IMG/VR virus record: IMGVR_UViG_3300045988_156843
From: a virus
Strand: one strand, 5' to 3'
Length of the DNA: 64,000 nucleotides
This document shows, one piece after another, positions 10,282-64,000 of the stretch (its first letter is position 1; each line of letters opens with the position of its first letter). The notes beneath the pieces were generated by a model that was given only the letters and a program-made list of their open reading frames with translations, did not search any database and had not been told where the DNA came from. The translations under genes were made by a program, and so were the position numbers.

Positions 10282-10304
10282 CACATAATTGACTATCTTT
10301 GCGT

Positions 10305-11933: not shown

Positions 11934-11940
11934 TTATAGA

Positions 11941-12751: not shown

Positions 12752-13162
12752 TTAAAGCATATCTTCCCAATTAATAGCTACACCCATACCCATCATATCA
12801 GCGAAGAAATGACGAAACGCTTTTTCGGTAGATGGATAGTCTGGATCATCGATATAGTCTTTTACGAATAGTGCTAACATTTGCTCGTTTTGTATAGACG
12901 ATCCCATATAATCTGCCCTAGCCATGTTTACTGCATATACTGCATTATAACCATTGTCTTTTTCCAATGTCACATTATATCTTTTCAACAGTTCGTCTAA
13001 CTTTTCTTTTGTAATAGGTGTGATTTTGCCTTCTTTTGTTTTCATCATAGAGACTGCCCAATCACACATTTTTTTAGAAAAATTAAATCCATAATTTTGT
13101 AGATAAATCCGCATATCTTCTGGGATATTATCATACAAATCAAAACTTGCTCCTTTATACAT
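12752..13162 (-). CDS. hypothetical protein
   Basis: 136-aa ORF in the minus-strand cluster; no motif recognised. Confidence 0.5.
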   Translation of the reverse strand: MYKGASFDLYDNIPEDMRIYLQNYGFNFSKKMCDWAVSMMKTKEGKITPITKEKLDELLKRYNVTLEKDNGYNAVYAVNMARADYMGSSIQNEQMLALFVKDYIDDPDYPSTEKAFRHFFADMMGMGVAINWEDML

Positions 13163-13176
13163 AATTAAAAAGTTTG

Positions 13177-13203
13177 TAGGGCACTATAATTTTTAGTGCC
13201 CTA
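13177..13203 (-). terminator. intergenic stem-loop
   Basis: tagggcact / agtgcccta form a perfect 9-bp stem. On the minus strand it is followed by caaacttttt. Confidence 0.4.
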
Positions 13204-13210
13204 ATTAATA

Positions 13211-13486
13211 CTAGCGTCTGCGTGAACGTGAGCGTCTGCCCCGCCTTTCGCCCATCATCTCTTCATCTTCGTATTCGTCATAACGGTTGCCATAAGAACC
13301 GCTACCACCACGACTTCCACCACCATAGGAGCCACCACCTTGTCCGCCACGTTCTCCCATTGATTCCATTTCGTCCCAAAGGGTTTCAAAATCTTCTTTT
13401 AGGCATTCAAGACTTTCTTTGAAGTCTTTAAAGGCTTTTCCTAATCCACCTTTTCTTTCGCCTTCCATTATTTCAATCATTCCCAT
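13211..13486 (-). CDS. Gly-rich protein with acidic core and Arg-rich tail
   Basis: 91 aa containing GERGGQGGGSYGGGSRGGSGSYG, then DEYEDEE, then RRGRRSRSRRR. The G+C-rich codons stand out from the background. Confidence 0.5.
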   Translation of the reverse strand: MGMIEIMEGERKGGLGKAFKDFKESLECLKEDFETLWDEMESMGERGGQGGGSYGGGSRGGSGSYGNRYDEYEDEEMMGERRGRRSRSRRR

Positions 13487-13493
13487 AATAATA

Positions 13494-14024
13494 TTATTTA
13501 GAATTTGTTGTTTTAGGTTTATTAGACGTATTCATTTCAATTAAAAGAGATTTTATATCTCCCAATCCATCTTTTACAGATTTTACCTCTTGCTCTAATG
13601 AATTAATCCTGTCTTCTTGTTGCTTCTCTTTCGCAAATTGAGGATTTAGTTCTTTTAAAATACTATCACAAGATTCTATAACAGATTTATGATATGGAAC
13701 GCTTTCCACAATTTGCTTACTAGTTTGCATCATTGCTTCAACTTCCGAAATGATAGCCTCTTTCTTTTCGGAAACAATCACATTTGGATAAGCAAACATT
13801 TCACCATTTGCAGGTAATTTCTGAAAGTCTAAGACCTCTTCACCACATCTAACCTTAATGTCTATAAGCATTTCTGGTTGAGGGCTATAAGGTATTGACG
13901 GATTATAAGTAGGATATTTAGGAACAGGTGAACTTACAGATTCGATCTGTCCTATTTTAACTGTAGGTCTTTCTCCTTTGGAAAGAACATATATAAAACC
14001 ACCTTGTCTACTTGATGAAAACAT
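13494..14024 (-). CDS. hypothetical protein
   Basis: 176-aa ORF with a C-terminal coiled-coil-like segment; no motif recognised. Confidence 0.5.
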   Translation of the reverse strand: MFSSSRQGGFIYVLSKGERPTVKIGQIESVSSPVPKYPTYNPSIPYSPQPEMLIDIKVRCGEEVLDFQKLPANGEMFAYPNVIVSEKKEAIISEVEAMMQTSKQIVESVPYHKSVIESCDSILKELNPQFAKEKQQEDRINSLEQEVKSVKDGLGDIKSLLIEMNTSNKPKTTNSK

Positions 14025-14051
14025 ATAATAAACTTTTTTAATTTGTTTTAC

Positions 14052-14077
14052 ATAGACGGGATTTTACTCCCGTCTAT
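14052..14077 (-). terminator. intergenic stem-loop
   Basis: atagacggga / tcccgtctat form a perfect 10-bp stem with a 6-nt loop. No adjacent U-run on the minus strand. Confidence 0.35.
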
Positions 14078-14081
14078 AAAT

Positions 14082-14570
14082 TTACTTACTTGCTACTGAT
14101 GTAGATGCAGGAGTTGTTCCGCCTGTCTGAAAATTGACAAAACGTATAATCCCCTCTCTTTTATTGATAAAAGCAAAGACCTCTTTTGAGTTTGTTATAT
14201 CAGAACCAATAACATTTGAACTGTTATGATCTATAACATTTACTTTACTTTCACCATTATTGGAAGAAGAACTCCCTACATTTGTACTATTATTGGACGT
14301 TGGAATAGCAATCGTTACAGGCAGTGCTTCACCACCTGTTGGAACTGCTTGATTAACTTGCACAGTCACATAACATTCACAAGGAAGCTGATTATACAGA
14401 CATTTGTCAATCCCATAGTCTACACTCGTCTCTGATAAGGCTACGTTTGTTGTCGGCAACTCAAATATACAGAGTTGTTTCAAACAAGAACGTTGTCTTG
14501 CCGGAATAGCCGGACCGGGACCACCTGTCCACCAGTAAGGATTGAACGGATTTAAAGGATTACCATACAT
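14082..14570 (-). CDS. Cys- and Ser/Asn-rich hypothetical protein
   Basis: The ORF-track start at 14591 is TTG. ATG 14570 is preceded by AAGGAGG at a 7-nt spacing. No motif recognised. Confidence 0.5.
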   Translation of the reverse strand: MYGNPLNPFNPYWWTGGPGPAIPARQRSCLKQLCIFELPTTNVALSETSVDYGIDKCLYNQLPCECYVTVQVNQAVPTGGEALPVTIAIPTSNNSTNVGSSSSNNGESKVNVIDHNSSNVIGSDITNSKEVFAFINKREGIIRFVNFQTGGTTPASTSVASK

Positions 14571-33588: not shown

Positions 33589-35535
33589 ATGGAAATAATC
33601 AAAGACATAGCAGCTACGCAAGAAGTTGAATGGGGCACTCTAGCAGATGCAATTGATAGGAATTTCAATGAAGCATCTACAGGAATTCAAACAGTTGCTC
33701 AGAAGGTGGATCTTCTTGACATGGCTTCTCCAAACTATTGTGTGGGAGAATGGCAAAATGGAGAATTAAGTCCTACATCAGTTAATACGATTGGTGATAC
33801 AAGTATACTTGACAAATGGGATTTCTATCTAATAGATACTACAGACAATACAGGTGAGACTAATCATCCTGTAGGAAAATTGAAAAGAAACAATCTTCTT
33901 CGATTTGTAGACGGTAGTTTTGCTCCTGTTATTGGAATCACAGAAGCTATGAGAGCCGAATGTGATGTTGAACTGTATTTAGATAATACCCAAACAAATA
34001 AATACTGTGATGCAGGGGCATTTGATGCAGAAGCATTCTATAATCAATATGGGATGACGCAGAAACTCTACAATGCGACAGGTGAAGAAGTTCGTATTTT
34101 ACGACCTTATGAGACCACTGAAACTAAATATACAATAGGTTTAGGAAGAGCAGATAAGATTTATCTATTAGATAACGTTGTCGGAAAAAGTGGGAAAAGA
34201 TGGAAAGGGATATTTGCAAGTCCGACAACATGGGATGGAATAGATACAACTCTTTGGGGGCTTGATCCGACTGCCATATCTCCTTGTCCTGTATGCACTA
34301 TTGGCAATAAGACACGTTCTTTCTTTTATGTATATGAAGGTGAATCTAATTGTAAATCTTCAAATGGTATAAATAATCGTTGTACGATGTTTAGTAACGG
34401 AAGAACATATCCAAGAGTTAATGATATGAATCAAGTCAACGACATGACGTGGAGTCGTGCAAATAATGCAGATCCCGATGCACCTTATCCTTTTGCAGAA
34501 GGAGGATATCATGCGTTGAATACTTTCATCAATTGTTTGGAAATTCGTTATGGAACTAAATATCTACACAAGGAATCATTATTTTCCGGTGGTATTTGTT
34601 CTAATGATTCTGTAAGCGAAGCAGGATGGACAAAGACGGGAGGCATTCGTTACAAAAAGACGGCAGATAGCACATGGAAATACGCTAATTGGAATACGAC
34701 TCCATCGGATATGTTCTATAATGCTAGTGGGGGTAAGACTAATATGAATGAATTCCTAAGTAATTATTGTCCTAAAGAACAATGTATGGAGAGTCAAATG
34801 GCAGCATCGTTTGCCGTTGAGACTGGAGTGCAGGAAGGTGAAGAATTTGAATTCTATGGAGCTACCTATTATTACCGCAATATAGTGGATACAAAAGGAT
34901 TAGCTGATGGAGAAATGAATGTAAAGGTATATAAGAAGATGTCTCAAACATTTAATGCATATGACGAGTTGGGTGCAGAAACATCTTTTGATGTAGAAGT
35001 AATCTTGCGTATGGCTTTATATGCAGGTGCTAATTTATCCGGTGATGTATTTGCTTACTGCGGAGGAGGATATGAACAGGTTGGAACATGTGTGAATGCT
35101 GCTTCAGCATCTGTTAACAATCCAGTTGATATTTATTTGGAACCGGATCAAAAAAAATGGTTGAAAGAAACAAGTGTAACTAAAACCAATCTTGGTACTT
35201 TTGATTTTGAAAAATCCTATATGAAATTAGGCAGTAGTACAAACTTGGGAGATAGTTACGCAAAAGAGCGAGAAAATTATGCTGCATGGAAGACTGCAAA
35301 AGGCGGTAGTCTGTCAACTGGAGAATGTTATTATGCTTGGGATAACAATTATTGGAGTAGTACAGCTATGCAGCGTGTTAGAATTGCGGCTCGGTTTCGT
35401 GGTCATGCTTATTCTGCTGTTTGCTCGCCTCGTAATTTGTATGCGCATTACGCTGCTTCTAATGCGACTCGTAACATTGCCGGGTTTGCCCAAGTTAGGA
35501 TATCAGTAAACGCAGTTCCGATGCAATCGGAATAA
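33589..35535 (+). CDS. DGR target protein (variable C-terminal C-type-lectin-like domain; probable receptor-binding protein)
   Basis: The last ~50 codons contain the VR, which matches the downstream TR except at TR adenines. The C-terminal placement of VR is typical of Mtd-like targets. Confidence 0.85.
   Translation: MEIIKDIAATQEVEWGTLADAIDRNFNEASTGIQTVAQKVDLLDMASPNYCVGEWQNGELSPTSVNTIGDTSILDKWDFYLIDTTDNTGETNHPVGKLKRNNLLRFVDGSFAPVIGITEAMRAECDVELYLDNTQTNKYCDAGAFDAEAFYNQYGMTQKLYNATGEEVRILRPYETTETKYTIGLGRADKIYLLDNVVGKSGKRWKGIFASPTTWDGIDTTLWGLDPTAISPCPVCTIGNKTRSFFYVYEGESNCKSSNGINNRCTMFSNGRTYPRVNDMNQVNDMTWSRANNADPDAPYPFAEGGYHALNTFINCLEIRYGTKYLHKESLFSGGICSNDSVSEAGWTKTGGIRYKKTADSTWKYANWNTTPSDMFYNASGGKTNMNEFLSNYCPKEQCMESQMAASFAVETGVQEGEEFEFYGATYYYRNIVDTKGLADGEMNVKVYKKMSQTFNAYDELGAETSFDVEVILRMALYAGANLSGDVFAYCGGGYEQVGTCVNAASASVNNPVDIYLEPDQKKWLKETSVTKTNLGTFDFEKSYMKLGSSTNLGDSYAKERENYAAWKTAKGGSLSTGECYYAWDNNYWSSTAMQRVRIAARFRGHAYSAVCSPRNLYAHYAASNATRNIAGFAQVRISVNAVPMQSE
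35386..35494 (+). repeat. DGR variable repeat (VR)
   Basis: Hand alignment to 35641-35749 gives 97/109 identical. All 12 mismatches lie opposite TR adenines. Confidence 0.9.
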
Positions 35536-35550
35536 AGGGGATGCAATCCC
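35516..35550 (+). promoter_or_regulatory. twin GCA-loop hairpins downstream of VR (candidate DGR target-recognition element)
   Basis: ttccgat-GCA-atcggaa (35516-35532, spanning the stop codon) and gggat-GCA-atccc (35538-35550). They start 22 nt after the VR end. Confidence 0.4.
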
Positions 35551-35640
35551 TGCAAATCCTATAGACATCTGATAAGTTATGCAATGGGACATAACCTCTA
35601 AAACAGATTGGATAGGTTGAAATAATGGATAAAGAGTTTT

Positions 35641-35749
35641 GCGGCTCGGTTTCGTGGTAATGCTAATAATGCTAATTGCTCGCCTCGTAATTTGAATGCG
35701 AATAACGCTGCTTCTAATACGAATCGTAACAATGCCGGGTTTGCCCAAG
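35641..35749 (+). repeat. DGR template repeat (TR)
   Basis: Non-coding copy of VR with 27 adenines. In the VR frame it reads as 12 AAY codons plus one ACG. Confidence 0.9.
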
Positions 35750-35895
35750 AAGGTTCTTTTATTATCGTCAAACTCTTTATTCGTGTCTTGGAACGACAAA
35801 TTATTATAAGACAATGTACTTGTGGATACATTTTGTATTTGAGAAGTACGGTAGTGGAAATAAACATTACCTTTTATGCCCAACTTGCTATAAAA

Positions 35896-37269
35896 ATGAA
35901 AAATAGAATAGTTGACATATTTGATAATATTACAGAAAAGGATGTAAATCTTGCGATTGATCGTGCTATTCATAAACATATGAATAAAAGAGAAGTCATA
36001 TCCTTTTTAGACAACAGACCGTCTAATTGCAAACAATTATATTCCGCATTAAAAGATGGATCATACATTAATATATTATCATATAAATATTTAGAAAAGA
36101 CAAATAAAAATGGTAAAGACAGGGACATCAGTAGTCCAACATTAGAAACTAGGATATACCAACATTTACTATTAAATTTGTTAGAACCTACATATTATCA
36201 GAAAGACAATAATTATGGTTTAAATTGCAAAAAGAAATCCGGTATAACTGCAACTGATAAAAAAAGATCTGTTGTACATAAGATGAAAAATATCTTTTAT
36301 GATCGATTGGATTTAAGTTATTGTTTAGTGATAGATCAAAGGAAGTGCTACGAACATATTAAGGAGAAATATTTCAGGAAAGCTATAAAGAAAATAGTTG
36401 CTGATAAAAAACTGATAGATTTTGCCGTAAATATATGTTTTGTAAATAATAAACTTCCGATTGGAACGCCAACTTCACCATTTGCTCATCATATCTTGAT
36501 GTTATCTTTTGATTATTTTGCAAAGAGTTTAACAAAAGAATGTGTAAGATACGCTGATGATAACTTTTTAGCTTTTCATACTAAAGAGGAAGCTCAACAG
36601 GCTAAATGGAGAATCAAGAACTTTTGGTGGTATGAATTAGGGATGCGTGCTAAAAGACATACAGTTAAAATACAGCCATTATCTATTCCTTTAGATTTTT
36701 GTGGCTATAAGTATTATAGAAATAACAATTCAAAAACTTCTCATAATAAAGGATATACAAAAATTAGAAAAAGAGTAGCTGACGATGCCAAACGCTGCAA
36801 TAATGATAGAAGTTGGGGATCTTACTTCGGATTATTAAAACATGCAGACACATGGTCATTAATGCGCAAAATAGAAAATAAAATGAGACTTACGGAACTT
36901 ACTAACAAGATCAAGATTGATCGCAAAATGGATGCTAAGAATATCCTTCCTAAAGAATTACTAGGCGAGGTTATATCCATTTATGAATATGAGATTAGAT
37001 ATGATTCTAAAGGCAATGCCAATTGGATTAAATGTTTAATTGGTATGGATGAAAAGGATGAAGATGGAGAATCTACTGGGAGAACAATCGCAAGAGAATT
37101 TCATGGAAACTTTCAAGGGATCATACAATATATTATCTTGTGCGAAAAGGCTTTTGGAAAGAAACAATTATTACCTTTGGAAGATGTTGAGATTGAGAAT
37201 CAATGTGGATACATATTCAAAGGAAGTACTAATCAATTAGAATATATAAGTAAAGATGAGAACAATTAA
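35896..37269 (+). CDS. DGR reverse transcriptase
   Basis: RT motifs VIDQRKCYEHI, LPIGTPTSPFAHHIL, VRYADDNFLAF (YxDD) and FCGYKY. The first ATG after the TR is at 35896; the longer track ORF from 35692 is just the TR read in frame. Confidence 0.85.
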   Translation: MKNRIVDIFDNITEKDVNLAIDRAIHKHMNKREVISFLDNRPSNCKQLYSALKDGSYINILSYKYLEKTNKNGKDRDISSPTLETRIYQHLLLNLLEPTYYQKDNNYGLNCKKKSGITATDKKRSVVHKMKNIFYDRLDLSYCLVIDQRKCYEHIKEKYFRKAIKKIVADKKLIDFAVNICFVNNKLPIGTPTSPFAHHILMLSFDYFAKSLTKECVRYADDNFLAFHTKEEAQQAKWRIKNFWWYELGMRAKRHTVKIQPLSIPLDFCGYKYYRNNNSKTSHNKGYTKIRKRVADDAKRCNNDRSWGSYFGLLKHADTWSLMRKIENKMRLTELTNKIKIDRKMDAKNILPKELLGEVISIYEYEIRYDSKGNANWIKCLIGMDEKDEDGESTGRTIAREFHGNFQGIIQYIILCEKAFGKKQLLPLEDVEIENQCGYIFKGSTNQLEYISKDENN

Positions 37270-42369: not shown

Positions 42370-45300
42370 ATGGCAGATATACCCGGAACCAATGTCGCCT
42401 CCATGATAACTCCGTTTACAACGCAGGATATCATCGCTACACATAGTGAAACATATGGACAAGGAGGCTATAGAAGTGAGAAAACAGTTGCAGATATGAA
42501 CGCAATTATTGCGTCCCGTAGAAAAGAAGGTATGATTGTTCATGTCTTAGATGAAGACAAGGATTATATCTTAAAGGACGGTAAATTTGTTGTGAAGACA
42601 AGTGAGGTCATTGTCGATTCAGCATTGAGCACTACTTCTCTTAATCCCGTTCAAAATAAAGTAATTACCAATGCTTTAGATTCCAAACAAAACTCTTTGG
42701 TTAGCGGAACTAGCATAAAGACCATTAATAGTGTATCTTTGTTAGGTTCCGGCAATATAAATATACCTGTTATAACAGTAGATAGTGCAACAAGTTCTAC
42801 ATCTACAAATCCTCTACAAAATAGGGTTATAACAGCTTCCATTACTGATATAAATACTAAATTAACGCCAATATCTACAGCATGGAACAAGAAAAATACA
42901 GCTAATGGTTTTCTTGTATTGGATACAGCAGGATTAGTTCCTAGCAGTAATCTTCCTTCCTATGTCGATGATGTATTGGATGTGTATGCTACATATGATC
43001 AATCAGCAACTGGAACTATATCAAATGTTAAATTATATACAGATTCATCTAAAACGATTGCAGTAGTTCCGGAAACAGGAAAGATATACATTGATGTTTC
43101 ATCCGGCAAACCTCCATATCAATTCAGATGGTCAGGTACAGCATATGTTACATTGAATACCGGAGGACTTATTATTGGTACTATATCCGGTACAGCATTT
43201 GATGGTGGAAAAGGACAAGAATTATATTCTGAATATGCAGGAAGCCGAAAAACTATTTATCAAAGAGCATATTCCTTCTTCAATGCCATTACTCCTGCTT
43301 CAGATAAATTCATGCAAAATATATCAGCATCTTATACTGCCACTGCCATATCACTGACTAAAGCATATAAGAACTTTGCAGGGACATCATCATCAGAATC
43401 ATTAACTATAAATGCTGCTACTACAAGTAATGCAGGAGTAATGTCTGCAGCAGATAAAACTAAGTTAGATTCATATCAAGCCTCAACAGGAGCTACTCCG
43501 AATTCAATTGCCAAGAGAGATGAGAATGGAGACCTTACAATGCGGTATCCAATTACTAATGCCGGAGTAGATAATAGCTCATCTATTGATTATGTCGTAT
43601 ATATAAGCAATTCTGCTACAAAGTTTATGAGACATTGTTCATTGTCTCATTTTACCGATGTAATGCGATTGGTTACAACAACAAGTAGAGGATTAATGTC
43701 TCCGGCTGACAAAAAGAAACTGGAAGATATTGATACAGAGAAATTCCTTCGAAAAGATATTGATGATATAGCAAATGGAAATATTACTTTCAATAATGGT
43801 ATTTATGTGAAAGGTTCATATGCTAACCTTCAATCAATTTTTGAACAAGGAGGAAATTCTATCCTTGAACAAGGAGAAAACGGGATTATAGAAACAGCAG
43901 AGACACAAGCAGCACCAACTGATATTACATTAGCTGATTTAGCTAATGTTGATGGCACAGTTAACGAACCTGCATACAAGAGGATGATTTTAACTAAACT
44001 TGCCGGAGCTACGACATGGACACAAGAATACATTGATCCTCTTATTGAAATTACAGAAGCTCCTAGCAATAATTTATATTATGCTAGAAGAAATAAAGCA
44101 TGGGTTAATTTTACTCCTTTTTCCGGTAATTATTCAGATTTATCGGGAAAACCGACTATTCCTACTAAATTAGCAAATCCATATGCATTAACCTTTTCCG
44201 GAGCAGTAACTGCAACATATGACGGATCAGGCGCAGTCAATGTAAATATACCTGTCGGTGGAGGAGGTGGTGGCGGAAGCGTTATCGTAGATAGCTCTCT
44301 TAGTACAACTTCGGTAAATCCTGTACAGAATAGGGTTATAACAAATGCTATTAATAATGCCAATAGTAGCATACAAACCAATGCTGATAATATTGAAGCG
44401 ATAATGGCTATTATCGCCAATATACCATCTATAAGTATAGATACTGCATTGAGCACAACAAGTACCAATGCTGTTCAGAATAAGGTGATAACTGCCGCCT
44501 TAAATTCCAAACAGAATACACTTGTGTCAGGTACTAATATTAAAACGATTAACAGTCAAAGTATTGTAGGATCAGGAAATGTCAATCTCACTTATTCTTT
44601 TTCTCAGATAACTTCTAAACCAACTACCTTATCGGGATATGGAATTTCGGATGCATATACAATGACGCAAGTAAACAATGCCTTTGTATCTTTAAGCGGA
44701 AATGTAATTAGAACATCAGGGAAGCTATCAATGGCAGCAGACGTATTTGCAGATGATGGCTCCACAGGTGGTCTTGATATGAGAAATTCGAATATTGTAG
44801 GTGTAAATGGTATATATTTTAAAGATGCATCAGATAGTGACGGTGAATATATCAATTTTTACAGAGATTCTACTCATGTTGATTCTTTATATGCATTAAA
44901 TGGAGAATTACGATTTAAACCTAATAGAGTATTAGGTGCTATAACGACTGCATCAAATATAATTCTTCATACGGGGAATTATACATCATATGTACCTACA
45001 AAAACAGGGACGGGAGCAACAGGGACTTGGGCAATAAGCATTACAGGAACAGCCGAGTTATCTAAAGCTACAAATTTAATCAATGGATCATATACAGGAA
45101 GTGGAGGAAAACAACCGCCATCTTATATACCATCAGGGAAGATTAGATTTAACATGATGAATACTGTTGTTGGTACTGACTCTAACTATAAGGATTTCAT
45201 ATTAATGGACAGTTATACTGGTAATGATGTTCCTTATGTTACTGCAATTGGAGTAAGAAAAACTTCAACTCCTGAAGCATATATAATGTCAGGTGCAAAA

Positions 45301-47337
45301 GGCAATACAACAGAAGCTAATTGGGTTAAGACTACTTTATTAAGTGCTCTTAACTACAATAACTATGCACCATCTAAAACCGGATTAGGTGCTAGTGGCA
45401 CATGGAATATTAATGTATCAGGATCAGCAGCCTCAGTTGCATGGGTAAATGTTTCCAATAAACCTAATTTTGCAGCAGTTGCAACTTCCGGTTCATATAA
45501 TGACTTAACTAATAAACCTACAATTACAAATATAACAGTTGACTCAGCCTTATCGACTACTAGCACTAATCCATTGCAAAATAAAATTATCACTACTGCA
45601 CTAAATGGCAAGCAAGCAAATCTTGTTTCGGGAACAAATATTAAGACTGTAGGAGGACAGAGTCTACTTGGAAGTGGTAATATTGCATTTCCTACAATAA
45701 CTGTTGATTCTGCTTTAAGTTCCACTTCAACGAATCCTTTGCAAAACAAGGTAATTAATAGTCAATTTGAATCTGTTACTACAGGAATGCAGTTAATTAT
45801 GAATTTATACAATGAGATTAAAACAAGTGCTTTAACCTCTTCTAGTGTTGTTACGTCTATTACTACAGAAAATAGTGATAGTACATCACTAGTAACATCT
45901 GTTAAATCCGTTGTTAGCTATATAAGTGATAATTTAATTGATCCTATAACTCCTATACTTACGGCTTATCTAACTCAAAATACCAAAAATGGTATGTTGA
46001 TTTTGGATTCAAATGGTAAAGTTCCTAGCAATTTATTGCCGGGCACATTGTTAACATTAGGAACAACATCTACTACGGCTTTTAGAGGTGATTATGGTAA
46101 CATCTTATTTACTAACTTTGGATCGGGAACAAATCTAACAGGTACTCAGCGTGCTAGAAACTTCTTTGGAAAAATTGATGTTTCTAATTTACATTTCTTA
46201 TCAGGTGGTTATACTTGGACACAAACAGATTCAGAAATAGAAATAGAATTTGAACAATATAATTTTACTGGTACTAAAAGTACATCCTCTCCTTTGATTA
46301 ATTTCCCAATAGCTACAACAGCGAAAGCCGGACTACTTGGAGGAGATCAATGCTCTTATTTAGTTTCTCTTAATACCGAATACAATAATATAGCAAATAA
46401 AGCAAATTATATAAAGGCTAGAAAGTTTTTTGGTAGCATAAATACCTCTACTGAATATTATTTAACTTCAGCTATAACTTTAAGTACTGATGCAAATGTG
46501 ATCGATATTGAGTTTCCTAAACATAATTTTGATGGAAGCAATGAAGAATATGAATATATCACTCTTCCTGCTGTTACATTAAATAACGCAGGAATATTAA
46601 CATCTACCCAATTTACTAATTTATCAAATAAACAGGAGAAATTAGTTTCCGGCACAAGTATCAAAACCATCAATGGGCAATCATTATTGGGAAGTGGTAA
46701 TATTAATATTTCAGGTGGGGGATTGAACTCATATACAACTACTCTTGATATTTTTAATATATCAAATGGTCGAACTATTACTTCTACAGAATTTGCAGAA
46801 GTAGGAAGAATTGTGACGGCTGTAAGAGAAGGAAAACAAATATTATATAACTATCAGGTGGCTGAATTTGGTACAGGAGTATTAAACTGCCATTTAGCGG
46901 ATGATTTAACTTGTCTATCATGGGTAGTTACAAGTTATACTGATACTGAAATATTCTATATCGATCCAACATTATCTACTGATAAATGGGCAAGAATATC
47001 ATTAGTAAAATCAGATTTTTCAAATATAACTTCCAAATCCTTCGGCTCCTCATCAAGTTACTACAAGCTTCCGGATGGGTTGCTGATTCAGTGGGGGTAT
47101 AGCACTAATTCAGGTATAGGCAAAGTGATATATTATCCAATATCCTTTTTTAATACTTATTACTCTGTGCATTTAACTGGAACTAGATCTGTACACAGTA
47201 ATTACATATATTCTTTTGATATATATACTAAAAGTGTAAGCTCTTTCACAATGGATTCCGTTTATCAGAACGTTGATTCAGATGCCGGAGGATTTAGCAT
47301 AGCTTTTTACTGGTTTGCTATTGGTAGATGGAAGTAA
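42370..47337 (+). CDS. long tail fibre with invertible C-terminal tip
   Basis: 1655 aa with repeated VDSALSTTSxNPxQNxVIT and LVSGTxIKTxNxxSxxGSGN modules. The C-terminal ...LPDGLLIQWG...W.AIG.WK tip is like common phage fibre tip domains. Confidence 0.8.
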   Translation: MADIPGTNVASMITPFTTQDIIATHSETYGQGGYRSEKTVADMNAIIASRRKEGMIVHVLDEDKDYILKDGKFVVKTSEVIVDSALSTTSLNPVQNKVITNALDSKQNSLVSGTSIKTINSVSLLGSGNINIPVITVDSATSSTSTNPLQNRVITASITDINTKLTPISTAWNKKNTANGFLVLDTAGLVPSSNLPSYVDDVLDVYATYDQSATGTISNVKLYTDSSKTIAVVPETGKIYIDVSSGKPPYQFRWSGTAYVTLNTGGLIIGTISGTAFDGGKGQELYSEYAGSRKTIYQRAYSFFNAITPASDKFMQNISASYTATAISLTKAYKNFAGTSSSESLTINAATTSNAGVMSAADKTKLDSYQASTGATPNSIAKRDENGDLTMRYPITNAGVDNSSSIDYVVYISNSATKFMRHCSLSHFTDVMRLVTTTSRGLMSPADKKKLEDIDTEKFLRKDIDDIANGNITFNNGIYVKGSYANLQSIFEQGGNSILEQGENGIIETAETQAAPTDITLADLANVDGTVNEPAYKRMILTKLAGATTWTQEYIDPLIEITEAPSNNLYYARRNKAWVNFTPFSGNYSDLSGKPTIPTKLANPYALTFSGAVTATYDGSGAVNVNIPVGGGGGGGSVIVDSSLSTTSVNPVQNRVITNAINNANSSIQTNADNIEAIMAIIANIPSISIDTALSTTSTNAVQNKVITAALNSKQNTLVSGTNIKTINSQSIVGSGNVNLTYSFSQITSKPTTLSGYGISDAYTMTQVNNAFVSLSGNVIRTSGKLSMAADVFADDGSTGGLDMRNSNIVGVNGIYFKDASDSDGEYINFYRDSTHVDSLYALNGELRFKPNRVLGAITTASNIILHTGNYTSYVPTKTGTGATGTWAISITGTAELSKATNLINGSYTGSGGKQPPSYIPSGKIRFNMMNTVVGTDSNYKDFILMDSYTGNDVPYVTAIGVRKTSTPEAYIMSGAKGNTTEANWVKTTLLSALNYNNYAPSKTGLGASGTWNINVSGSAASVAWVNVSNKPNFAAVATSGSYNDLTNKPTITNITVDSALSTTSTNPLQNKIITTALNGKQANLVSGTNIKTVGGQSLLGSGNIAFPTITVDSALSSTSTNPLQNKVINSQFESVTTGMQLIMNLYNEIKTSALTSSSVVTSITTENSDSTSLVTSVKSVVSYISDNLIDPITPILTAYLTQNTKNGMLILDSNGKVPSNLLPGTLLTLGTTSTTAFRGDYGNILFTNFGSGTNLTGTQRARNFFGKIDVSNLHFLSGGYTWTQTDSEIEIEFEQYNFTGTKSTSSPLINFPIATTAKAGLLGGDQCSYLVSLNTEYNNIANKANYIKARKFFGSINTSTEYYLTSAITLSTDANVIDIEFPKHNFDGSNEEYEYITLPAVTLNNAGILTSTQFTNLSNKQEKLVSGTSIKTINGQSLLGSGNINISGGGLNSYTTTLDIFNISNGRTITSTEFAEVGRIVTAVREGKQILYNYQVAEFGTGVLNCHLADDLTCLSWVVTSYTDTEIFYIDPTLSTDKWARISLVKSDFSNITSKSFGSSSSYYKLPDGLLIQWGYSTNSGIGKVIYYPISFFNTYYSVHLTGTRSVHSNYIYSFDIYTKSVSSFTMDSVYQNVDSDAGGFSIAFYWFAIGRWK
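42613..45759 (+). repeat. six in-frame copies of a 57-nt fibre module
   Basis: VDSALSTTS.NP.QN.VIT-type copies at 42613-42669, 42778-42834, 44287-44343, 44437-44493, 45538-45594 and 45703-45759. They are conserved at the protein level but diverged in nucleotide sequence. Confidence 0.8.
47026..47097. repeat. left 72-bp inverted repeat of the invertible fibre-tip segment
   Basis: Identical to the reverse complement of 47581-47652 at 72/72 positions. It encodes ITSKSFGSSSSYYKLPDGLLIQWG in frame. Confidence 0.95.
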
Positions 47338-47580
47338 TTATTTCCAATTACCTATAGCTAACCATGTGAAATTCCATGCTGTTTCATTAACATTGCCGCC
47401 TTGTGCTATATATCTAGTTAAAACAGAAAACGAAGAACCTGATCTAGAGTAAAACATAGGAGAATATACGATTTTTTCCGTTTGATTAACAGCTTCTCCC
47501 GTGAATTGTATAGTATAATATGCAGTTTTAAAAGTAGTAGGCATATATATAGTTTTAATACCTGCTCCACCTGCAATTGT
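47098..47580. mobile_element. invertible segment carrying two tail-to-tail fibre-tip cassettes
   Basis: 483 bp between perfect inverted repeats. It holds the expressed tip (47098-47337) and a silent antiparallel tip (47580-47338) with zero spacer. Confidence 0.7.
47338..47580 (-). other. silent alternative fibre C-terminal cassette (80 aa)
   Basis: In frame with the right inverted repeat and has no ATG (the track start is a TTG inside the repeat). A TAA lies two codons upstream of the repeat. Homologous to the active tip (TIYMPTTF.. vs VIYYPISF.., FTWLAIGNWK vs FYWFAIGRWK). Confidence 0.75.
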
Positions 47581-47652
47581 CCCCCACTGAATCAGCAACC
47601 CATCCGGAAGCTTGTAGTAACTTGATGAGGAGCCGAAGGATTTGGAAGTTAT
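47581..47652. repeat. right 72-bp inverted repeat
   Basis: Reverse complement of 47026-47097, 72/72. Confidence 0.95.
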
Positions 47653-47687
47653 GAATTAAAATAGTATTTTTACAAAAAATATGAGAA

Positions 47688-48242
47688 ATGATGTATTGGA
47701 AACAAGGCTTTTACGATGAACCTGTAGAGGGAAGCCTAGAAATAACAGATGAATACTGGCGAGAGCTTTTGACTGGGCAGGAGAATGGTTTGGAAATCCA
47801 TGAAGATTCTAATGGGTATCCAATGCTGAGACAACATGTATATACTTTAGAAGAAGCAGTACAAATGAAGGAAATAGAAATTAATGCTTATGACTCTTCT
47901 GACAAGGTAAACTGTTTTATACTTGATGGGGAATCCGGATGGCTTAATAAAGCAGATCGAGCAGGATTAATCAACTCTATTAACATAGAAAAAGATGCAG
48001 GAAGAACCGAAACAAAAATTTGGTTTAACAATAAAAAACATCCTCTTCCAGTAGATTTTGCTTTAGATATGATTAAAAAAATAGAATTATACGCTATTGA
48101 CTGCAATGATACGACTGAAGAGCATTTGGCTATTATAAAAGAATTTGCTACTGTTCAACAAGTACAGACATTTGATGTTACTAAAGATTATCCTGAAATA
48201 TTAACGTTTAAAAGTAAAAAAGATGAAGAAAGTATTTTATAA
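47688..48242 (+). CDS. tail fibre assembly protein-like (DUF4376-like)
   Basis: 184 aa directly after the fibre. The central/C-terminal region resembles DUF4376 of fibre assembly proteins as I recall it; unverified. Confidence 0.4.
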   Translation: MMYWKQGFYDEPVEGSLEITDEYWRELLTGQENGLEIHEDSNGYPMLRQHVYTLEEAVQMKEIEINAYDSSDKVNCFILDGESGWLNKADRAGLINSINIEKDAGRTETKIWFNNKKHPLPVDFALDMIKKIELYAIDCNDTTEEHLAIIKEFATVQQVQTFDVTKDYPEILTFKSKKDEESIL

Positions 48243-48654
48243 CTCATGGTTAGCTAAGGCTATCTTATTTCCACAGTTTTCTACAATTACTATTATGGCT
48301 TGGGTATTTACTAAATATCGTTCCCTTAAACAAGCCGTTATTAATCATGAATGCACACATGCTCGTCAATGGACTGAATTAGCTATTGCTTCAGGAATAC
48401 TGATTTGGCTTGGAATATTGATCTTTGGTTATTCGGCATGGTATTTATTATTTGCGGCAGTAGTCTTTTATATTTGGTATGGCTTAGAATATGGGATTCG
48501 TTTTTTGATTTCTACTATTTTAGATGATGGGTGTACGGCACATGATATATATAAAAGCGTTTCTTTTGAACAAGAAGCCCGTTTTTCTGAGGAAGATAAT
48601 AATTATCTAGAAAATAGCAATTATTTCGCATGGACTAAATTTTTATTTAAATAA
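48223..48654 (+). CDS. membrane protein with HExxH..Q motif
   Basis: INHECTHARQW is followed by two TM helices (LAIASGILIWLGILIFGY and LLFAAVVFYIWYGL). Zincin-like, reminiscent of DUF4157. Confidence 0.4.
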   Translation: MKKVFYNSWLAKAILFPQFSTITIMAWVFTKYRSLKQAVINHECTHARQWTELAIASGILIWLGILIFGYSAWYLLFAAVVFYIWYGLEYGIRFLISTILDDGCTAHDIYKSVSFEQEARFSEEDNNYLENSNYFAWTKFLFK

Positions 48655-59237: not shown

Positions 59238-59335
59238 AATCCTTAAATTAGATGACCTTAATCTAGTAGAAGTGGGGAAGAGGGATTAAGGAAACCTCTT
59301 TCAAGTGCTAGCTACTTCACTCTATCCCCACTTTG

Positions 59336-59343
59336 CAAATATA
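59336..59343 (-). promoter_or_regulatory. candidate -7 box (TATATTTG on minus strand)
   Basis: Perfect TAnnTTTG about 100 nt upstream of the initiator ATG (59237). Confidence 0.25.
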
Positions 59344-59380
59344 GATATTATTTTGGATAAACCCTTATAGATAACATAAT

Positions 59381-60511
59381 TTAAGCTATAAAAGGACTAT
59401 TCAGCGCAATTTCCGTATCTTCATCCGGATTTTCAATGAATATAGGCTGTCTTTCTCCAGTAACAGCTAATATAACATTCTCAGAATTAATGCCATTTAT
59501 TGTAGAAATTATATATGATATCGTAAAGTCTATAGAAATATTAGATCCTCCATCAGCCTCTATAAAATCTTTCATTTTTATGTTTCCTTCCCAATTCTCA
59601 GAAGAAATATTAAGACCTTTTTCACTAAAGGCAAAATTAACAATTCCTTTGTATTTAGAGTCATGAATATTAGCAGCCTTTTGAAGACAATTCAATATTT
59701 GCTTTTTATTAACTGTAATTTTAAACAAGATCGGATATTTGAGCAATGAATGGAAATTGGGCATTTTATATTCCAATTTTCTGACCATTATCATTGTATT
59801 GTCACAAATAATAATAATATTATTTTCTCCATTTTTAATAGTGACCTTATCTTCTTTTTTTAAGGCTTTTACAATACCACTAAAAGAATTCTTTGGAATA
59901 CCAAACTGAGTTGTGATATTGTTATTTTCCAATTGCATAGAATCATGATACATTTTAAATCCATCTGATGCAAATACATTGACTCTCCCTTCTATGATAT
60001 CAATATTTAGACATCCCATAGAAAGTTTTATATCATCTAAATCACCAAGATACTGGTTGCTATTATTTATCCAATATGAAAGTAAATCAGCTTGAATATC
60101 AAAAGCATCAGACCCTTTATCGCTATTTAATTTCGGATACATATTTGGATCATCACATGGAAAAACTACAGATCCAGTATCTGTGGATATAGTAGATGAA
60201 ATTATTTTTTCTCCTTCTACTGAACTTAATTTCTCTATTACTTCAATAGAAATATATTCATCTGATAGAAGAGATATGTAACTTACAAGATTATTCTTGT
60301 TAATGCAAAAAATACCATTTTCAACATCTGCCTCAACAGGACATACCGTTTTTATAGCATTCTGATTATCATATGATAAGATCCATGCCTTATTCTCCTT
60401 AATTTGAACTCTTATGTCCTCTAATATTGGAAGTATTTTTTTGTTACCGGAGAAGCTACCGCCAATTTCGATAGCTTCTAATAATTGTTTCCTATTAAAT
60501 TTTAGTTTCAT
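59381..60511 (-). CDS. dnaN: DNA polymerase III beta sliding clamp
   Basis: MKLKFNRKQLLEAIEIGGSFSGNKKILPILEDIRVQIKENKAWILSYDNQNAIKT is a typical DnaN N-terminus, and the ~376-aa three-domain length fits. The track start at 60553 is TTG; ATG is at 60511. Confidence 0.8.
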   Translation of the reverse strand: MKLKFNRKQLLEAIEIGGSFSGNKKILPILEDIRVQIKENKAWILSYDNQNAIKTVCPVEADVENGIFCINKNNLVSYISLLSDEYISIEVIEKLSSVEGEKIISSTISTDTGSVVFPCDDPNMYPKLNSDKGSDAFDIQADLLSYWINNSNQYLGDLDDIKLSMGCLNIDIIEGRVNVFASDGFKMYHDSMQLENNNITTQFGIPKNSFSGIVKALKKEDKVTIKNGENNIIIICDNTMIMVRKLEYKMPNFHSLLKYPILFKITVNKKQILNCLQKAANIHDSKYKGIVNFAFSEKGLNISSENWEGNIKMKDFIEADGGSNISIDFTISYIISTINGINSENVILAVTGERQPIFIENPDEDTEIALNSPFIA

Positions 60512-60740
60512 TTTCTTTTGCCTCTTTTTTTTCAGCCAGTTTATATATAACAATCGCAGATAATGCCACTTTTAATTCCATTATACCTTTAATCTTATTA
60601 CCCAATTCATCTATGTCTATTTCCATTTCGCCATTAAATGAATCGATAATATTTACCATTTCTTTATCACCTCCTGATAAAAGAATAAAGCTTTTTATAA
60701 AATCACTATCAATACGAGTTTTTATTACAATTTCATTCAT
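60495..60740 (-). CDS. hypothetical protein
   Basis: The track start at 60776 is TTG; ATG is at 60740 (MNEIVIK...). Confidence 0.4.
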   Translation of the reverse strand: MNEIVIKTRIDSDFIKSFILLSGGDKEMVNIIDSFNGEMEIDIDELGNKIKGIMELKVALSAIVIYKLAEKKEAKENETKI

Positions 60741-60918
60741 CGTTTTTAAATATAAAATTATTACAATAATATCCAATGTATCCCGGTTCTACAAACATAC
60801 CAATTTCTGTGGTTAATTCGTTACTATATTTAATATATACCTGATATCTCATGCATATATCTCTGATTGGACAATTTTCTCCAGTGCAATGTGCTACATC
60901 ATTCATCAGTACCTTCAT
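60733..60918 (-). CDS. small Cys-rich protein
   Basis: 61 aa containing CTGENCPIRDIC. Confidence 0.4.
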   Translation of the reverse strand: MKVLMNDVAHCTGENCPIRDICMRYQVYIKYSNELTTEIGMFVEPGYIGYYCNNFIFKNDE

Positions 60919-60999
60919 TTAATACTTTAACATTGATTAATTTGTCTATGGTATCAATTTTTTTATCAAGATCGCATGCTTTCCTTAAGTTTTCTCTTT

Positions 61000-61164
61000 T
61001 CATTTTTCATCCTCCATAATTATAAAATATACTCCATCAATTTTAACATATGGAATTTTTTTATTCTTAATCCATGATGTTACTGTTTCCCTGACAACTC
61101 CTTTTAGTTCAGCATAATGACGAACTGTTTTTAATTTTGTTATATCTACTTTCTCTATTTTCAT
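61000..61164 (-). CDS. small HTH (excisionase-type) DNA-binding protein, below ORF-track cutoff
   Basis: Hand translation gives MKIEKVDITKLKTVRHYAELKGVVRETVTSWIKNKKIPYVKIDGVYFIIMEDEK*, which fits the HTH_17 pattern (..aa..lgvs..tv..wi..g.ip..kidg...i). Confidence 0.5.
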   Translation of the reverse strand: MKIEKVDITKLKTVRHYAELKGVVRETVTSWIKNKKIPYVKIDGVYFIIMEDEK

Positions 61165-61176
61165 TTTTATTCTCAA

Positions 61177-61359
61177 TTAAAATAGTATTGTATTCCAATA
61201 ATTACGCCAATGCCCGAAACAATCGCATCGGTTTCCATCATTTTCCTTACGGACAAAAGCAAGATTGTTTCTATCAATCAACGGCTTATTGTAAGGATAT
61301 TGTTTTACTCTGATTTTATAGGCTCGTAGAGCAAGCCTACGATTCTTTATTTTATTCAT
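61177..61359 (-). CDS. hypothetical basic protein
   Basis: 60-aa ORF in the array. Confidence 0.35.
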   Translation of the reverse strand: MNKIKNRRLALRAYKIRVKQYPYNKPLIDRNNLAFVRKENDGNRCDCFGHWRNYWNTILF

Positions 61360-61377
61360 CTCTATGTATGTTTTGAA

Positions 61378-61533
61378 TTAATCGACTCTTACAATTTTGC
61401 CACTCTCTAAAATCACATATAACTTGCAGTTGTAATCAATAGAGCTTGCCCATTGATGCGCATATCTTACATATTGATGTAGCTTATATCTGCTTGGGTC
61501 GGAAAGCATCTTTTTTCTAATCCTTTTTTTCAT
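61378..61533 (-). CDS. small hypothetical protein (51 aa, below cutoff)
   Basis: Hand translation gives MKKRIRKKMLSDPSRYKLHQYVRYAHQWASSIDYNCKLYVILESGKIVRVD*. Fills a gap in the array. Confidence 0.3.
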   Translation of the reverse strand: MKKRIRKKMLSDPSRYKLHQYVRYAHQWASSIDYNCKLYVILESGKIVRVD

Positions 61534-61546
61534 TACTTTCTTGTTA

Positions 61547-61825
61547 TTAGTCAATTCTAAATTTCTGATTATGCAGATGTAACATAAGCCCTAAATATTC
61601 TTCCCACTCATCATGGGGTAAAGTTATATGGCATCTGAATTTGTCACAACAATAAGGGCATTCGTGTAGAACCATCATAGCGCCCTGCACTTCGGCAATT
61701 CCTACAATGTTATGTCCATGTTCCGTAGACTTGCATTGACATTTAAGCATTGGTTCATATCTGTATTCTTCCCATTGAGGGATAACAGGGATATTGTATT
61801 GTTCATTTCCAAATATTATCTTCAT
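61547..61825 (-). CDS. Cys/His-rich hypothetical protein
   Basis: Contains CQCKSTEHGH...HECPYCCDKFRCH. Confidence 0.45.
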   Translation of the reverse strand: MKIIFGNEQYNIPVIPQWEEYRYEPMLKCQCKSTEHGHNIVGIAEVQGAMMVLHECPYCCDKFRCHITLPHDEWEEYLGLMLHLHNQKFRID

Positions 61826-61842
61826 ATTTTTATTGTTTTACG

Positions 61843-62124
61843 TTAAATACTAATTGCTTTAAACTCTTGTGGTGAAATCATCTTCTTTGATTTCACAGAA
61901 GAAAAAAACACTTCCGCAGGACAAACACATTCAGGCATTCCTCCTATATTGCAATCATCGGGAATAGTTGTCAATATACATAAACCATCTGCGGGCAAAT
62001 GTTCACAACTTACTCTATCATCCCACTCAATGTACTTTTGTGCTTCCTTTGCGAGAGCTTCACATCTATGCCTATAATTTATGTAGGCATCATCCGCATC
62101 TTTCAGTAACTTAGATATATTCAT
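61843..62124 (-). CDS. hypothetical protein
   Basis: 93-aa ORF in the array. Confidence 0.45.
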   Translation of the reverse strand: MNISKLLKDADDAYINYRHRCEALAKEAQKYIEWDDRVSCEHLPADGLCILTTIPDDCNIGGMPECVCPAEVFFSSVKSKKMISPQEFKAISI

Positions 62125-62305
62125 TTCTATTTTTATTCGATATAAATTCCTGATAAGCTTTTTCTAATTCCTCGCAATCATATACAGGTTCTTCACTTTC
62201 ACCCATTACAATAGTCCAGCATTGGGATGAATGTCTTGTATAAACATTTTCGCTCGTCTCAACAGTATGGGACACAAACTCTCTTATTTCTTCTATTTTA
62301 ATCAT
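62111..62305 (-). CDS. hypothetical protein
   Basis: 64-aa ORF that overlaps the next gene. Confidence 0.4.
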   Translation of the reverse strand: MIKIEEIREFVSHTVETSENVYTRHSSQCWTIVMGESEEPVYDCEELEKAYQEFISNKNRNEYI

Positions 62306-62332
62306 ATCTTTCTTACTTAGTATTGAGCCTTT

Positions 62333-63340
62333 TCAGGACACGTTAATATTAAATTTTTCTTTTATAAAAGACAGGATGTGTACAATTACATCTACTGTCC
62401 AACCGTTACCAAGCATCCGGTATTGTTGTGTGTCGGAGCATTCCCATTTATACCAATCGGGGATCGTTTGCAATCGGGCGCATTCGGTAGGAGTCAGACG
62501 ACGTATTCTTGCAATCATGCCGTCCCTTAAAATCCTCACATAATTGTCATTATCCCCCATTTTATGGACACGTTGATTAATTGTCCTACATTTCACTGCG
62601 AATGGAAATTCAAATGGTTCAAACTTATAGGGGGTGAAAGTTTCCGTTTTCTTTCTTGATGCAAGACAGGAGACCATTTTATCACTCAGATAAAACTTAT
62701 CGTCCACTTCATCTTCAAGTATATCTTTCAACAAGACTCCTTTATCCACAGGCTGCGGTATGTCCGAATGCAGCTCACCAAACAGTCCATTTCTCCTCGT
62801 CCGGATATTCGTCCAATATATGCGCCTCCGATTCTGTGCTGATACCAAGGCGGAATTGATATGCACACCATATACACCGATAGCCTCGCTTAATACCCTT
62901 TCCCATTTCTTACCCATTTCTACGTTTTCCAACAAGAACAGCACATTCGGATTGTATTTACGAATATCGGTTAGGATACGCATATACTCCCAAAACAGAT
63001 AAGACTCTCCTTCGAATTGAATGCCTTCCTCTTTTAATTCCAGGTAGCGATTTAGGGTGTATATCTCCTCTTTGTCGGCAGTGGACATCCCGACACGTTT
63101 TCCGGCAAAAGAGAATGACTGACAAGGGCTGCCACCTATCAACAAGTCAATAGGCTCCAACTGAGATACATCTACCCGGTTGACATCTCCGAGCTGAATT
63201 GTGTTCGGGAAGTTCAGTTGTGTCTGCTTGATGGCATGCTTGTCTACCTCGGATGCGTAGTACTTTTCCGGGATAATACCAAGCTGTTTTAAGGCTATTT
63301 GCCCACAACTCATGCCGTCAAATAAACTAAGTACTTTCAT
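62333..63340 (-). CDS. DNA (cytosine-5)-methyltransferase
   Basis: Motif I (LSLFDGMSCG), motif IV (GGSPCQSFSFAG), motif VI (LLENV), motif VIII (AQNRRRIYW) and motif X (MLGNGWTV). Confidence 0.9.
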   Translation of the reverse strand: MKVLSLFDGMSCGQIALKQLGIIPEKYYASEVDKHAIKQTQLNFPNTIQLGDVNRVDVSQLEPIDLLIGGSPCQSFSFAGKRVGMSTADKEEIYTLNRYLELKEEGIQFEGESYLFWEYMRILTDIRKYNPNVLFLLENVEMGKKWERVLSEAIGVYGVHINSALVSAQNRRRIYWTNIRTRRNGLFGELHSDIPQPVDKGVLLKDILEDEVDDKFYLSDKMVSCLASRKKTETFTPYKFEPFEFPFAVKCRTINQRVHKMGDNDNYVRILRDGMIARIRRLTPTECARLQTIPDWYKWECSDTQQYRMLGNGWTVDVIVHILSFIKEKFNINVS

Positions 63341-63352
63341 TACTTTTTTTAT

Positions 63353-63664
63353 TTATCGTTCTAACATACATTGTTCACACAGATGCAAAAAATCGTTTCC
63401 TCGCAATTTTGAAGCAACTTCAGAGGATATATCATAAGCAAGCTCGCCTAATTCTTCACCTAAATAATAGGTATCATCTTTAAGACAGGCAAAATCTTCA
63501 TCATTCTCAATTTGCTCTTTGAAGTAGGCAAAACCAGATTCTTCATCACTAAATAAATCAATCCATATCCAACTACTTTTGTTGATACCGTCAAATTGAC
63601 GTTTGAGTAGTTGATATACTACTTTCAAGAAATCTTCTTTCATAATTACTTCATTTTTAATCAT
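63353..63664 (-). CDS. hypothetical acidic protein
   Basis: 103-aa ORF in the array. Confidence 0.45.
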   Translation of the reverse strand: MIKNEVIMKEDFLKVVYQLLKRQFDGINKSSWIWIDLFSDEESGFAYFKEQIENDEDFACLKDDTYYLGEELGELAYDISSEVASKLRGNDFLHLCEQCMLER

Positions 63665-63999
63665 TAGTTAATTACTTTTGCCAACTTATTAAAAGCCTTC
63701 TCTTTATCAAACTTAATCCCATCTTTGAACTCTAATATCAACTGCCAAAATTGTTTTTTATAAACATCACCTGCTTTATAGTCAGTTTTATAATGACATT
63801 CCTGCGGGGTAGTCATTTCCTTAAATGTATTCATCGCATTAAGATATGTGGCTCCCCATTCTGTGAGCTCTACACTAACGGTATCATTCAAATCTATTTC
63901 TATTAACTTACAAATCTCTATTTTGTGAGTTTCTTCCTTTGCAACAAGAGCAGCTTGTAAACTCTCTATCTGGTCTTTTAGAATTTCGATTTCACTCAT
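63664..63999 (-). CDS. hypothetical protein
   Basis: 111-aa ORF whose ATG sits one base from the window edge. The true start could lie beyond the window. Confidence 0.4.
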   Translation of the reverse strand: MSEIEILKDQIESLQAALVAKEETHKIEICKLIEIDLNDTVSVELTEWGATYLNAMNTFKEMTTPQECHYKTDYKAGDVYKKQFWQLILEFKDGIKFDKEKAFNKLAKVIN

Positions 64000-64000
64000 A

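Follow-up and report, generated by a model that had tools for sequence, protein, structure and literature searches.

Several systems have been described in which a tail fibre receives one of two alternative ends through the inversion of a DNA segment. In the G segment of phage Mu and the P segment of e14, the fibre gene itself contains the inverted repeats, its constant N-terminal portion can be continued by either of two antiparallel C-terminal portions, the small serine recombinase involved (Gin or Pin) is encoded by the phage, and one orientation dominates populations. The arms of Mu G are 34 bp long and contain the 26-bp gix site, the invertase gene and an enhancer abut the segment, and the chaperones U and U' are located inside it, one for each tip. 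In the C segment of phage P1 the coding repeats reach approximately 0.6 kb, with cin adjacent and cix sites at the repeat ends. The present work concerns a 627-bp segment, arms included (47026-47652), of a viral DNA stretch of 64,000 nucleotides (IMG/VR record IMGVR_UViG_3300045988_156843), the whole of which is referred to here as the window. This segment works as a DNA-inversion switch with two cassettes, by which a long tail fibre changes its receptor-binding tip.

The locus has the features of Mu G and e14 P given above, and with the Gin, Hin, Cin and Pin group it shares intragenic inverted repeats with opposed tips, both orientations across samples and a small serine recombinase, its catalytic Ser placed close to the N-terminus, encoded by the element itself. 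Other hallmarks of that group were not found, namely an adjacent invertase gene with an enhancer, a 26-bp site of the gix, hix or cix type and a chaperone for each tip inside the segment. When compared to Mu G, the window phage has 72-bp arms without a gix-like core, a recombinase located about 27 kb away, an exchange of about 80 residues, and a single chaperone-like gene outside the segment. The long coding repeats, far longer than a recombinase site and flanking alternative fibre ends, resemble those of P1, but the adjacent cin gene and the cix sites at the repeat ends are features of P1, whereas the recombinase is distant here and no crossover site was found.

Two systems outside the phages are also of relevance. 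The Mpi invertase of Bacteroides fragilis needs no adjacent gene arrangement, as it works in trans on inverted repeats at a distance, and its family provides the best NCBIfam match to the phage recombinase; Mpi, however, flips promoters, whereas the window switch swaps coding ends. In the sap system of the Campylobacter fetus S-layer, inversion is RecA-dependent, with an inverted conserved coding sequence of some 600 bp of homology as the substrate through which the remainder of the surface protein is swapped. This offers a model for a homology-driven alternative, discussed below, although sap is bacterial, relies on much longer homology and exchanges 5' ends.

Among gut phages, a tail-fibre shufflon with a 10-bp core (TGGGAGAACT) and an adjacent recombinase has been reported for BV01-like phages of Phocaeicola vulgatus (preprint, 2026, PMC13596623). 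The nearest biological relatives of the window switch are this shufflon and the mirrored multi-cassette modules of two further groups, termed here L003-type and L170-type phages. In common with the window phage, which probably infects Bacteroidales, the BV01-like and L003-type phages are Bacteroidales gut phages which alter the distal fibre end by inversion, but they carry three to five cassettes with short sites, in contrast with two cassettes and 72-bp arms. Two papers that deal with abundant gut phages are silent on inversions (PMC8008677; PMC12636319), and viral invertons have been called poorly understood in a 2026 methods paper (PMC13501310). Neither the switch region, nor either tip, nor the L003 region had a match among the INPHARED phages, by DNA or by protein. 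The window locus is a new architecture of the Mu/P1-type switch, and the supposed absence of a recombinase is not upheld by the whole genome.

Anatomy of the fibre-tip switch

The features on which the argument depends are listed below, with positions referring to the window.

42370-47337, plus strand: tail-fibre gene of 1655 aa, comprising a constant body (residues 1-1552), the left arm (1553-1576) and tip A (1577-1655)
46996-47025, plus strand: decayed outer extension of the repeat, with its partner at 47653-47682; 9 nt are perfect in the relatives c161584 and L186
47026-47097, plus strand: left repeat arm, always translated, identical to the right arm at 72/72 positions
47098-47337, plus strand: tip cassette A, 79 aa plus stop, expressed in the window orientation and occupying the silent slot in the relatives L197 and L014
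47338-47580, minus strand: tip cassette B, 80 aa plus stop, silent in the window; expressed in L197, with a related allele expressed in L184
47581-47652, minus strand: right repeat arm, identical at 72/72 positions, which carries the private mismatches of relatives
47656-47658, minus strand: frame-closing TAA, two codons upstream of the right arm, as read from the translation
47688-48242, plus strand: fibre-assembly (chaperone)-like gene of 184 aa, outside the invertible unit, with a match to phrog_188
853-1713, plus strand: RecT-family single-strand annealing protein (Pfam RecT, E 6.6e-30)

A reading made beforehand from the sequence alone (the sequence-only reading) had proposed most of this layout, and was borne out in its details. 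The perfect inverted repeat was recovered at all 72 positions when 47026-47097 was compared again with the reverse complement of 47581-47652. The left arm consists of 24 in-frame codons of the fibre (ITSKSFGSSSSYYKLPDGLLIQWG), as had been stated, and terminates precisely at the GLLIQWG motif that is invariant in the tip family. The 483 bp between the arms are fully occupied by the two tail-to-tail ends, whose stop codons abut with zero spacer, and the minus-strand cassette reads in frame with the right arm until the TAA shuts that frame. The statement that the silent cassette has no ATG is correct for the head of the cassette, but internal Met codons are present. The presence of RecT and the location of the chaperone outside the invertible unit were likewise confirmed. 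The adjacent gene had been described as fibre-assembly-like and not an invertase; here the likeness must be put more cautiously, with a weak match to the tail fiber assembly protein phrog_188 (E 2.5e-5). Homologues of this gene, at 45-53% identity, form mirrored pairs beside the tip cassettes in L003 and L170-type phages, whereas the window phage has the single copy outside its arms.

Repeat identity drops sharply at the inner edges of both arms. Towards the outside a weaker extension of 30 nt, matching at 18 of 30 positions, brings the repeat to 102 nt at 88% identity. So long a perfect stretch occurs in just one inverted repeat of the window, the other six pairs being 23-33 nt long and 78-87% identical. 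Only two cassettes and one pair of repeats are present at the switch, while a shufflon has at least three cassettes with short sites; since there are two cassettes and no tyrosine recombinase, the window switch is not a shufflon.

The arms have also been followed through related assemblies. Among 13 relatives, no site in the left arm is variable, which is not significant because the flanks vary at just 1.7%. Private mismatches occur in the right, untranslated arm only, at positions 11, 30 and 46 in L001, at position 35 in L018, L021 and L190, and at position 61 in L188. A crossover in the inner third of the arm was considered on the basis of mismatches clustering in the outer 46 nt and was dropped in view of position 61 in L188. 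In c161584 and L186 the perfect repeat reaches 81 nt through a 9-nt outward extension, and the minus-strand TAA is thereby removed.

The two tips are homologous yet strongly diverged, as had been proposed, with 35% protein identity (BLASTP E 2e-11) and DNA in which divergence visibly far exceeds that of the repeat. Both pass the Pfam family PF21882 (Gp53-like_C), with a gathering threshold of 24.9 bits, tip A at E 2.9e-14 (53.8 bits) and tip B at E 1.6e-12 (48.2 bits); within the fibre open reading frame (ORF) the domain covers residues 1566-1653. The family-wide motifs Y-K-x3-G-L-L-I-Q-W-G and F-x-W-x-A-I-G-R-W-K are present. The fibre also has a weak PDB match to 4mtm, a 'putative tail fiber protein', and structure prediction for tip A from a 10-sequence alignment was poor, with a mean predicted local distance difference test score of 51.6. 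Tips A and B probably differ in receptor specificity.

Both orientations occur among relatives

Approximately 35 related assemblies with flanks 96-99% identical to the window were gathered from IMG/VR and from human-gut metagenomes of the European Nucleotide Archive (ENA) by pattern scans and exact-protein look-ups, and were counted without de-duplication across collections. A repeat of the 72-bp type is present in all of them. The sequence-only reading had suggested that related contigs be compared for the opposite orientation; tip A or its allele A' follows the fibre body in 32 assemblies, and the segment is flipped in three, from different samples:

L197 (ERZ28575001, 69-kb scaffold through both arms): B expressed and A silent, with an inverted match and collinear flanks
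L184 (ERZ28622055, 85.7-kb scaffold): B-family allele expressed, with a silent tip D of a fourth family that is about 30% identical to the others
L014 (6.1-kb contig, coverage 2.5): C expressed and A silent, the last 597 nt being 100% identical to L002 2312-1716, inverted

The L197 assembly is the predicted flipped form of the window's own A and B pair. Its positions 2336-2971 correspond to window 47652-47017 in inverted orientation at 99.2% identity, and its flanks are collinear at 96.9% and 99.8%. Taken alone, L014 could be the outcome of an assembler's choice, because the repeat exceeds the common k-mer length (k) and the contig ends inside the distal arm; the long flipped scaffolds L197 and L184 are much harder to dismiss in this manner. 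Flipped forms therefore exist in nature, and the fibre-tip switch, for which the logic of Mu G and P1 C had been proposed, is real and naturally active.

The recovery of these forms depended on the search used. A first version of the flipped-junction pattern matched nothing in viral or metagenome contigs; it demanded a G at repeat position 72 and missed L014 because tip C carries an A there. The metagenome-contig scans did not list either of the long scaffolds, which were obtained from the assemblies collection. Chimeric protein queries joining the body to B or to C found no flipped protein of the window phage, and revealed instead the L003-type relatives and the shared tip C. Look-ups of a hypothetical 'silent A' ORF and of a 649-aa neighbour gave no record.

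Across the relatives the silent slot holds B, several B alleles (B', B''), C or D, giving at least four tip families in all. The slot alleles B, B', B'', C and D are found in changing combinations with A and A', among them A beside B, C or B' and A' beside B or B'; mosaics of A and A' also occur. The silent cassettes are open and in frame in all relatives except L185. Between B and B' the synonymous divergence (dS) is 0.43 and the non-synonymous divergence (dN) 0.106, with a dN/dS of 0.25, compared to 0.20 between the expressed A and A'. Judged from these ratios, the silent cassettes evolve like coding sequence, although the constraint could possibly have been imposed while they were expressed in donor phages.

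It might be argued that no programmed switching takes place, that the spare tip, stored or decaying, is left over from a past duplication or capture, and that the flips are accidental rearrangements or assembler choices. The same orientation in 32 of 35 assemblies accords with this, a strongly skewed ratio. So does a single extra A in an A6 run of the silent B' of L185 (L185:5040-5430), a +1 frameshift that may be genuine or a homopolymer error and makes this the sole disabled cassette in about 35 relatives. In L018, L021 and L190 the changes in B are all non-synonymous. The repeat is also longer than common assembler k values, and contigs break at it: c162030 ends 37 nt into the right arm and L014 53 nt into the distal arm, while the L012 locus stops with the final base of the left arm, which may be a storage-chunk boundary and not a contig end. 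Against this stand three independent flipped assemblies, two of them scaffolds which cross both arms with the arms perfect and the flanks collinear; a dN/dS in the silent slot close to that of the expressed slot; four unrelated tip families all intact in the silent slot; and a precise in-frame design kept in every relative. A static relic is thus regarded as quite unlikely.

By eye from the sequences, tip C (L002:2015-2314) is about 85-90% identical to the silent cassettes (P0015-P0018) of L003-type phages; the two therefore appear to draw on a shared pool of tips, joined at the GLLIQWG boundary. L003 itself (8547-12040) belongs to a different gut-phage lineage and has a Mu-G-like mirror arrangement, in which a fibre end and chaperone face a chaperone and four to five Gp53-like_C cassettes, each cassette being preceded by AAGTTCTCTCGGGAC. 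Its site is 17 bp long (AAGTTCTCTCGGGACTA), and L175, from another sample, is the exact product of inversion between copies of it. This site is absent from the window. The mirrored chaperones of L003 lie inside the unit, in contrast with the outside location of the window gene.

A distant serine recombinase, the probable agent of inversion

The sequence-only reading had noted the absence of any recombinase. This is correct for the window, where a Pfam scan of 62 ORFs found no Resolvase or Phage_integrase domain, the proteins detected being RecT, TnpB, C5 methylase, DnaB, sliding clamp, portal, terminase and reverse transcriptase. The window, however, is 64 kb of an 82-86 kb (~83-kb) genome. 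The remaining ~19 kb were rebuilt from relatives 97-99% identical, along a path in which L129, reversed, runs from window 59322-64000 to L108, and L108 reaches window position 1. In this omitted part a 247-aa small serine recombinase is encoded (L129:5198-5941, from IMGVR 3300045988_162030), with a Pfam Resolvase match at E 1.2e-25. The window thus lacks a recombinase because its edge leaves out the part of the genome that encodes one, and of the options raised earlier, that of an invertase encoded elsewhere is the one favoured by the data.

The gene lies among a series of small ORFs of early type, about 10.7 kb to the right of window position 64000. Among NCBIfam models its product matches the Mpi master DNA invertase family best (NF009949, E 3.8e-27), at 95.3 bits where the equivalog cut-off is 272 bits, and its 247 aa exceed the roughly 200 positions of that model; on this score the enzyme is related to the Mpi family and is not an equivalog. 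The best PDB match is the Gin invertase (3uj3/4m6f, E 3e-8), and the motifs YIRCSTDKQ and SRLGRS are present. Five relatives encode it at 98-100% identity and a sister clade at 70-77%, and every close relative for which the region was retrieved has it. In a Pfam scan of the reconstructed genome, with ORFs of at least 70-100 aa considered, no other Resolvase or Phage_integrase protein was detected; the Phage_integrase domain expected of an Rci-like tyrosine recombinase was found neither in the window nor in the remaining part recovered from relatives.

Two further repeat structures lie around this gene. Inverted repeats of about 1.1 kb (L129:121-1216 and 12816-14296; 85-88% identity) bracket a 12.7-kb region with the serine recombinase. 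By coordinates the gene order around the right arm looks alike in the four relatives compared, several contigs break nearby, and the repeats are probably inverted paralogous genes. In the sister clade, the neighbouring gene on the upstream side of the recombinase (L141:4997-5962) is built of about 50 tandem 18-nt units (hexapeptide repeats) and reads open in several frames.

That no second such enzyme was detected in the reconstructed genome and no second such repeat in the window argues in favour of the recombinase performing the inversion, and it is most likely the catalyst. In the proposed mechanism, recombination between the 72-bp arms would turn the enclosed segment around, so that the constant 1576-residue fibre would end in tip B and no longer in tip A. 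The chaperone-like gene downstream would not move and would serve either tip, and the 247-aa serine recombinase would work in trans in the manner of Mpi in Bacteroides. The arms are probably kept identical by homologous recombination or gene conversion through the phage RecT or the host RecA, processes which probably also import new tips from other phages. A population would consist mostly of phages with tip A, and a minority with the other tip could take over upon a change in the host surface.

Several observations weigh against this interpretation, in addition to the skewed orientation ratio and the frameshift in L185. The 72-bp arm has no gix/hix-like dyad core: as had been reported, the AAACC-NN-GGTTT core is not in the repeat sequence, and the symmetry of half-sites reaches at best 7/13. 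What we take to be the Mpi repeat consensus has no match in the arms or near the repeat. Searches near the recombinase for extra copies of the repeat and for local inverted repeats gave nothing convincing. The gene lies ~27 kb from the switch, not adjoining it like Gin, Cin and Pin. A homologue of 38% identity is encoded in the early region of the Bacteroides fragilis phage B124-14, and no comparable inverted repeat was found in the 38 kb of B124-14 which hold the tail-fibre gene. A perfect identity of 72 bp exceeds what a serine invertase needs, and the 9-nt outward extension in c161584 and L186 is a signature of gene conversion.

These points lend themselves to an explanation in which the switch is real but driven by homology: RecT, aided by a partner nuclease or the host RecA, would recombine the identical arms at any point along their 72 bp while the DNA replicates, gene conversion would keep the arms alike, and the serine recombinase would have another job. 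The phage encodes RecT, and a sharp-edged perfect repeat beside far more diverged DNA is a pattern of concerted evolution; in two relatives conversion has lengthened the repeat to 81 nt. The arms offer no recognisable recombinase core, the enzyme is remote, and B124-14 has a homologue of it, with no comparable repeat found in the 38 kb around its fibre gene. The cassettes are clearly swapped by homologous recombination, as seen in the likeness of tip C and in the A/A' mosaics, and flips in three of 35 assemblies would fit a slow process of this kind. Conversely, an invertase-type enzyme is kept under conservation in the genome, and the 17-bp site at which related tip modules invert is not long enough for homologous recombination. 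The private mismatches of the right arm persist in several relatives, and homogenisation of the arms is therefore not continuous. We know of no characterised fibre-tip inversion that does not use a site-specific recombinase. Owing to the lack of a core in the repeat, the B124-14 homologue without the repeat and the gene conversion in the arms, the homology-driven explanation remains a serious one, although it is held to be the less probable. An extended form of it, in which a programmed switch run by RecT without an invertase, with gene-converted arms and tips drawn from a pool in common with shufflon-carrying phages, operates alongside a diversity-generating retroelement in a probably virulent phage, is put forward only tentatively.

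A third possibility is that an invertase of the Bacteroidales host, of the tyrosine or Mpi type, flips the segment during phage replication. Bacteroidales encode many invertases acting in trans. The window phage probably infects this order, as indicated by the B124-14 recombinase homologue, a DUF4494 protein and its human-gut origin; GTDB genomes searched with the repeat gave no match and so no host assignment came from that search. The phage has an invertase-type enzyme of its own, however, the Mpi consensus as we take it is missing from the arms, and reliance on whichever host is infected would make an unreliable switch. Such a dependence on the host is considered very improbable. Switching catalysed by the phage's own invertase, with homologous recombination as a maintenance process, is the preferred interpretation, with a probability of roughly 0.55.

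Further variation in the phage and its significance

The fibre body also varies. When window 42370-47025 is set beside L178-L197, its length among otherwise near-identical relatives is seen to lie between 948 and 2212 aa, a variation likely due to gain or loss of internal repeats, and direct-repeat families are found within the body at 42778-44518 and 43419-43714. A TnpB ORF (OrfB_IS605 with a Cas12f1-like TNB domain) is encoded at window 10299-11483. In ERZ13405088 (L195:1805-2980) a TnpB ORF is located directly outside the right arm, between the switch and the chaperone-like gene.

The window additionally contains a diversity-generating retroelement (33589-37269). Its variable repeat (35384-35494) lies at the 3' end of a 648-aa ORF (33589-35535), the template repeat is at 35639-35749, and all 12 differences between the two (12/12) fall at template adenines. 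The reverse transcriptase ORF (35692-37269) matches Pfam RVT_1 (E 2e-11) and phrog_1423 (E 1e-34). Action of a retroelement on the fibre tip was considered and rejected, as the arms are identical and inverted and the element in the window targets another gene.

In a public assembly collection, 858 indexed blocks contain the exact chaperone-like protein and 194 its 143-aa neighbour (48223-48654); the contigs read among the chaperone matches are ENA metagenome assemblies. The window phage, which is uncultivated, is thus very prevalent in human-gut metagenomes.

For the scanning of genomes, the locus illustrates that the lack of a recombinase from a partial window does not show that the genome lacks one. 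A fibre switch can evidently be so small that it exchanges no more than a domain of some 80 residues, with one chaperone in common and a recombinase encoded far away. Two independent routes of tail variation are combined in a single phage, a retroelement acting on one tail protein and inversion acting on a fibre tip with at least four interchangeable families, which makes it a good natural system for understanding how gut phages track the phase-variable surfaces of Bacteroidales.

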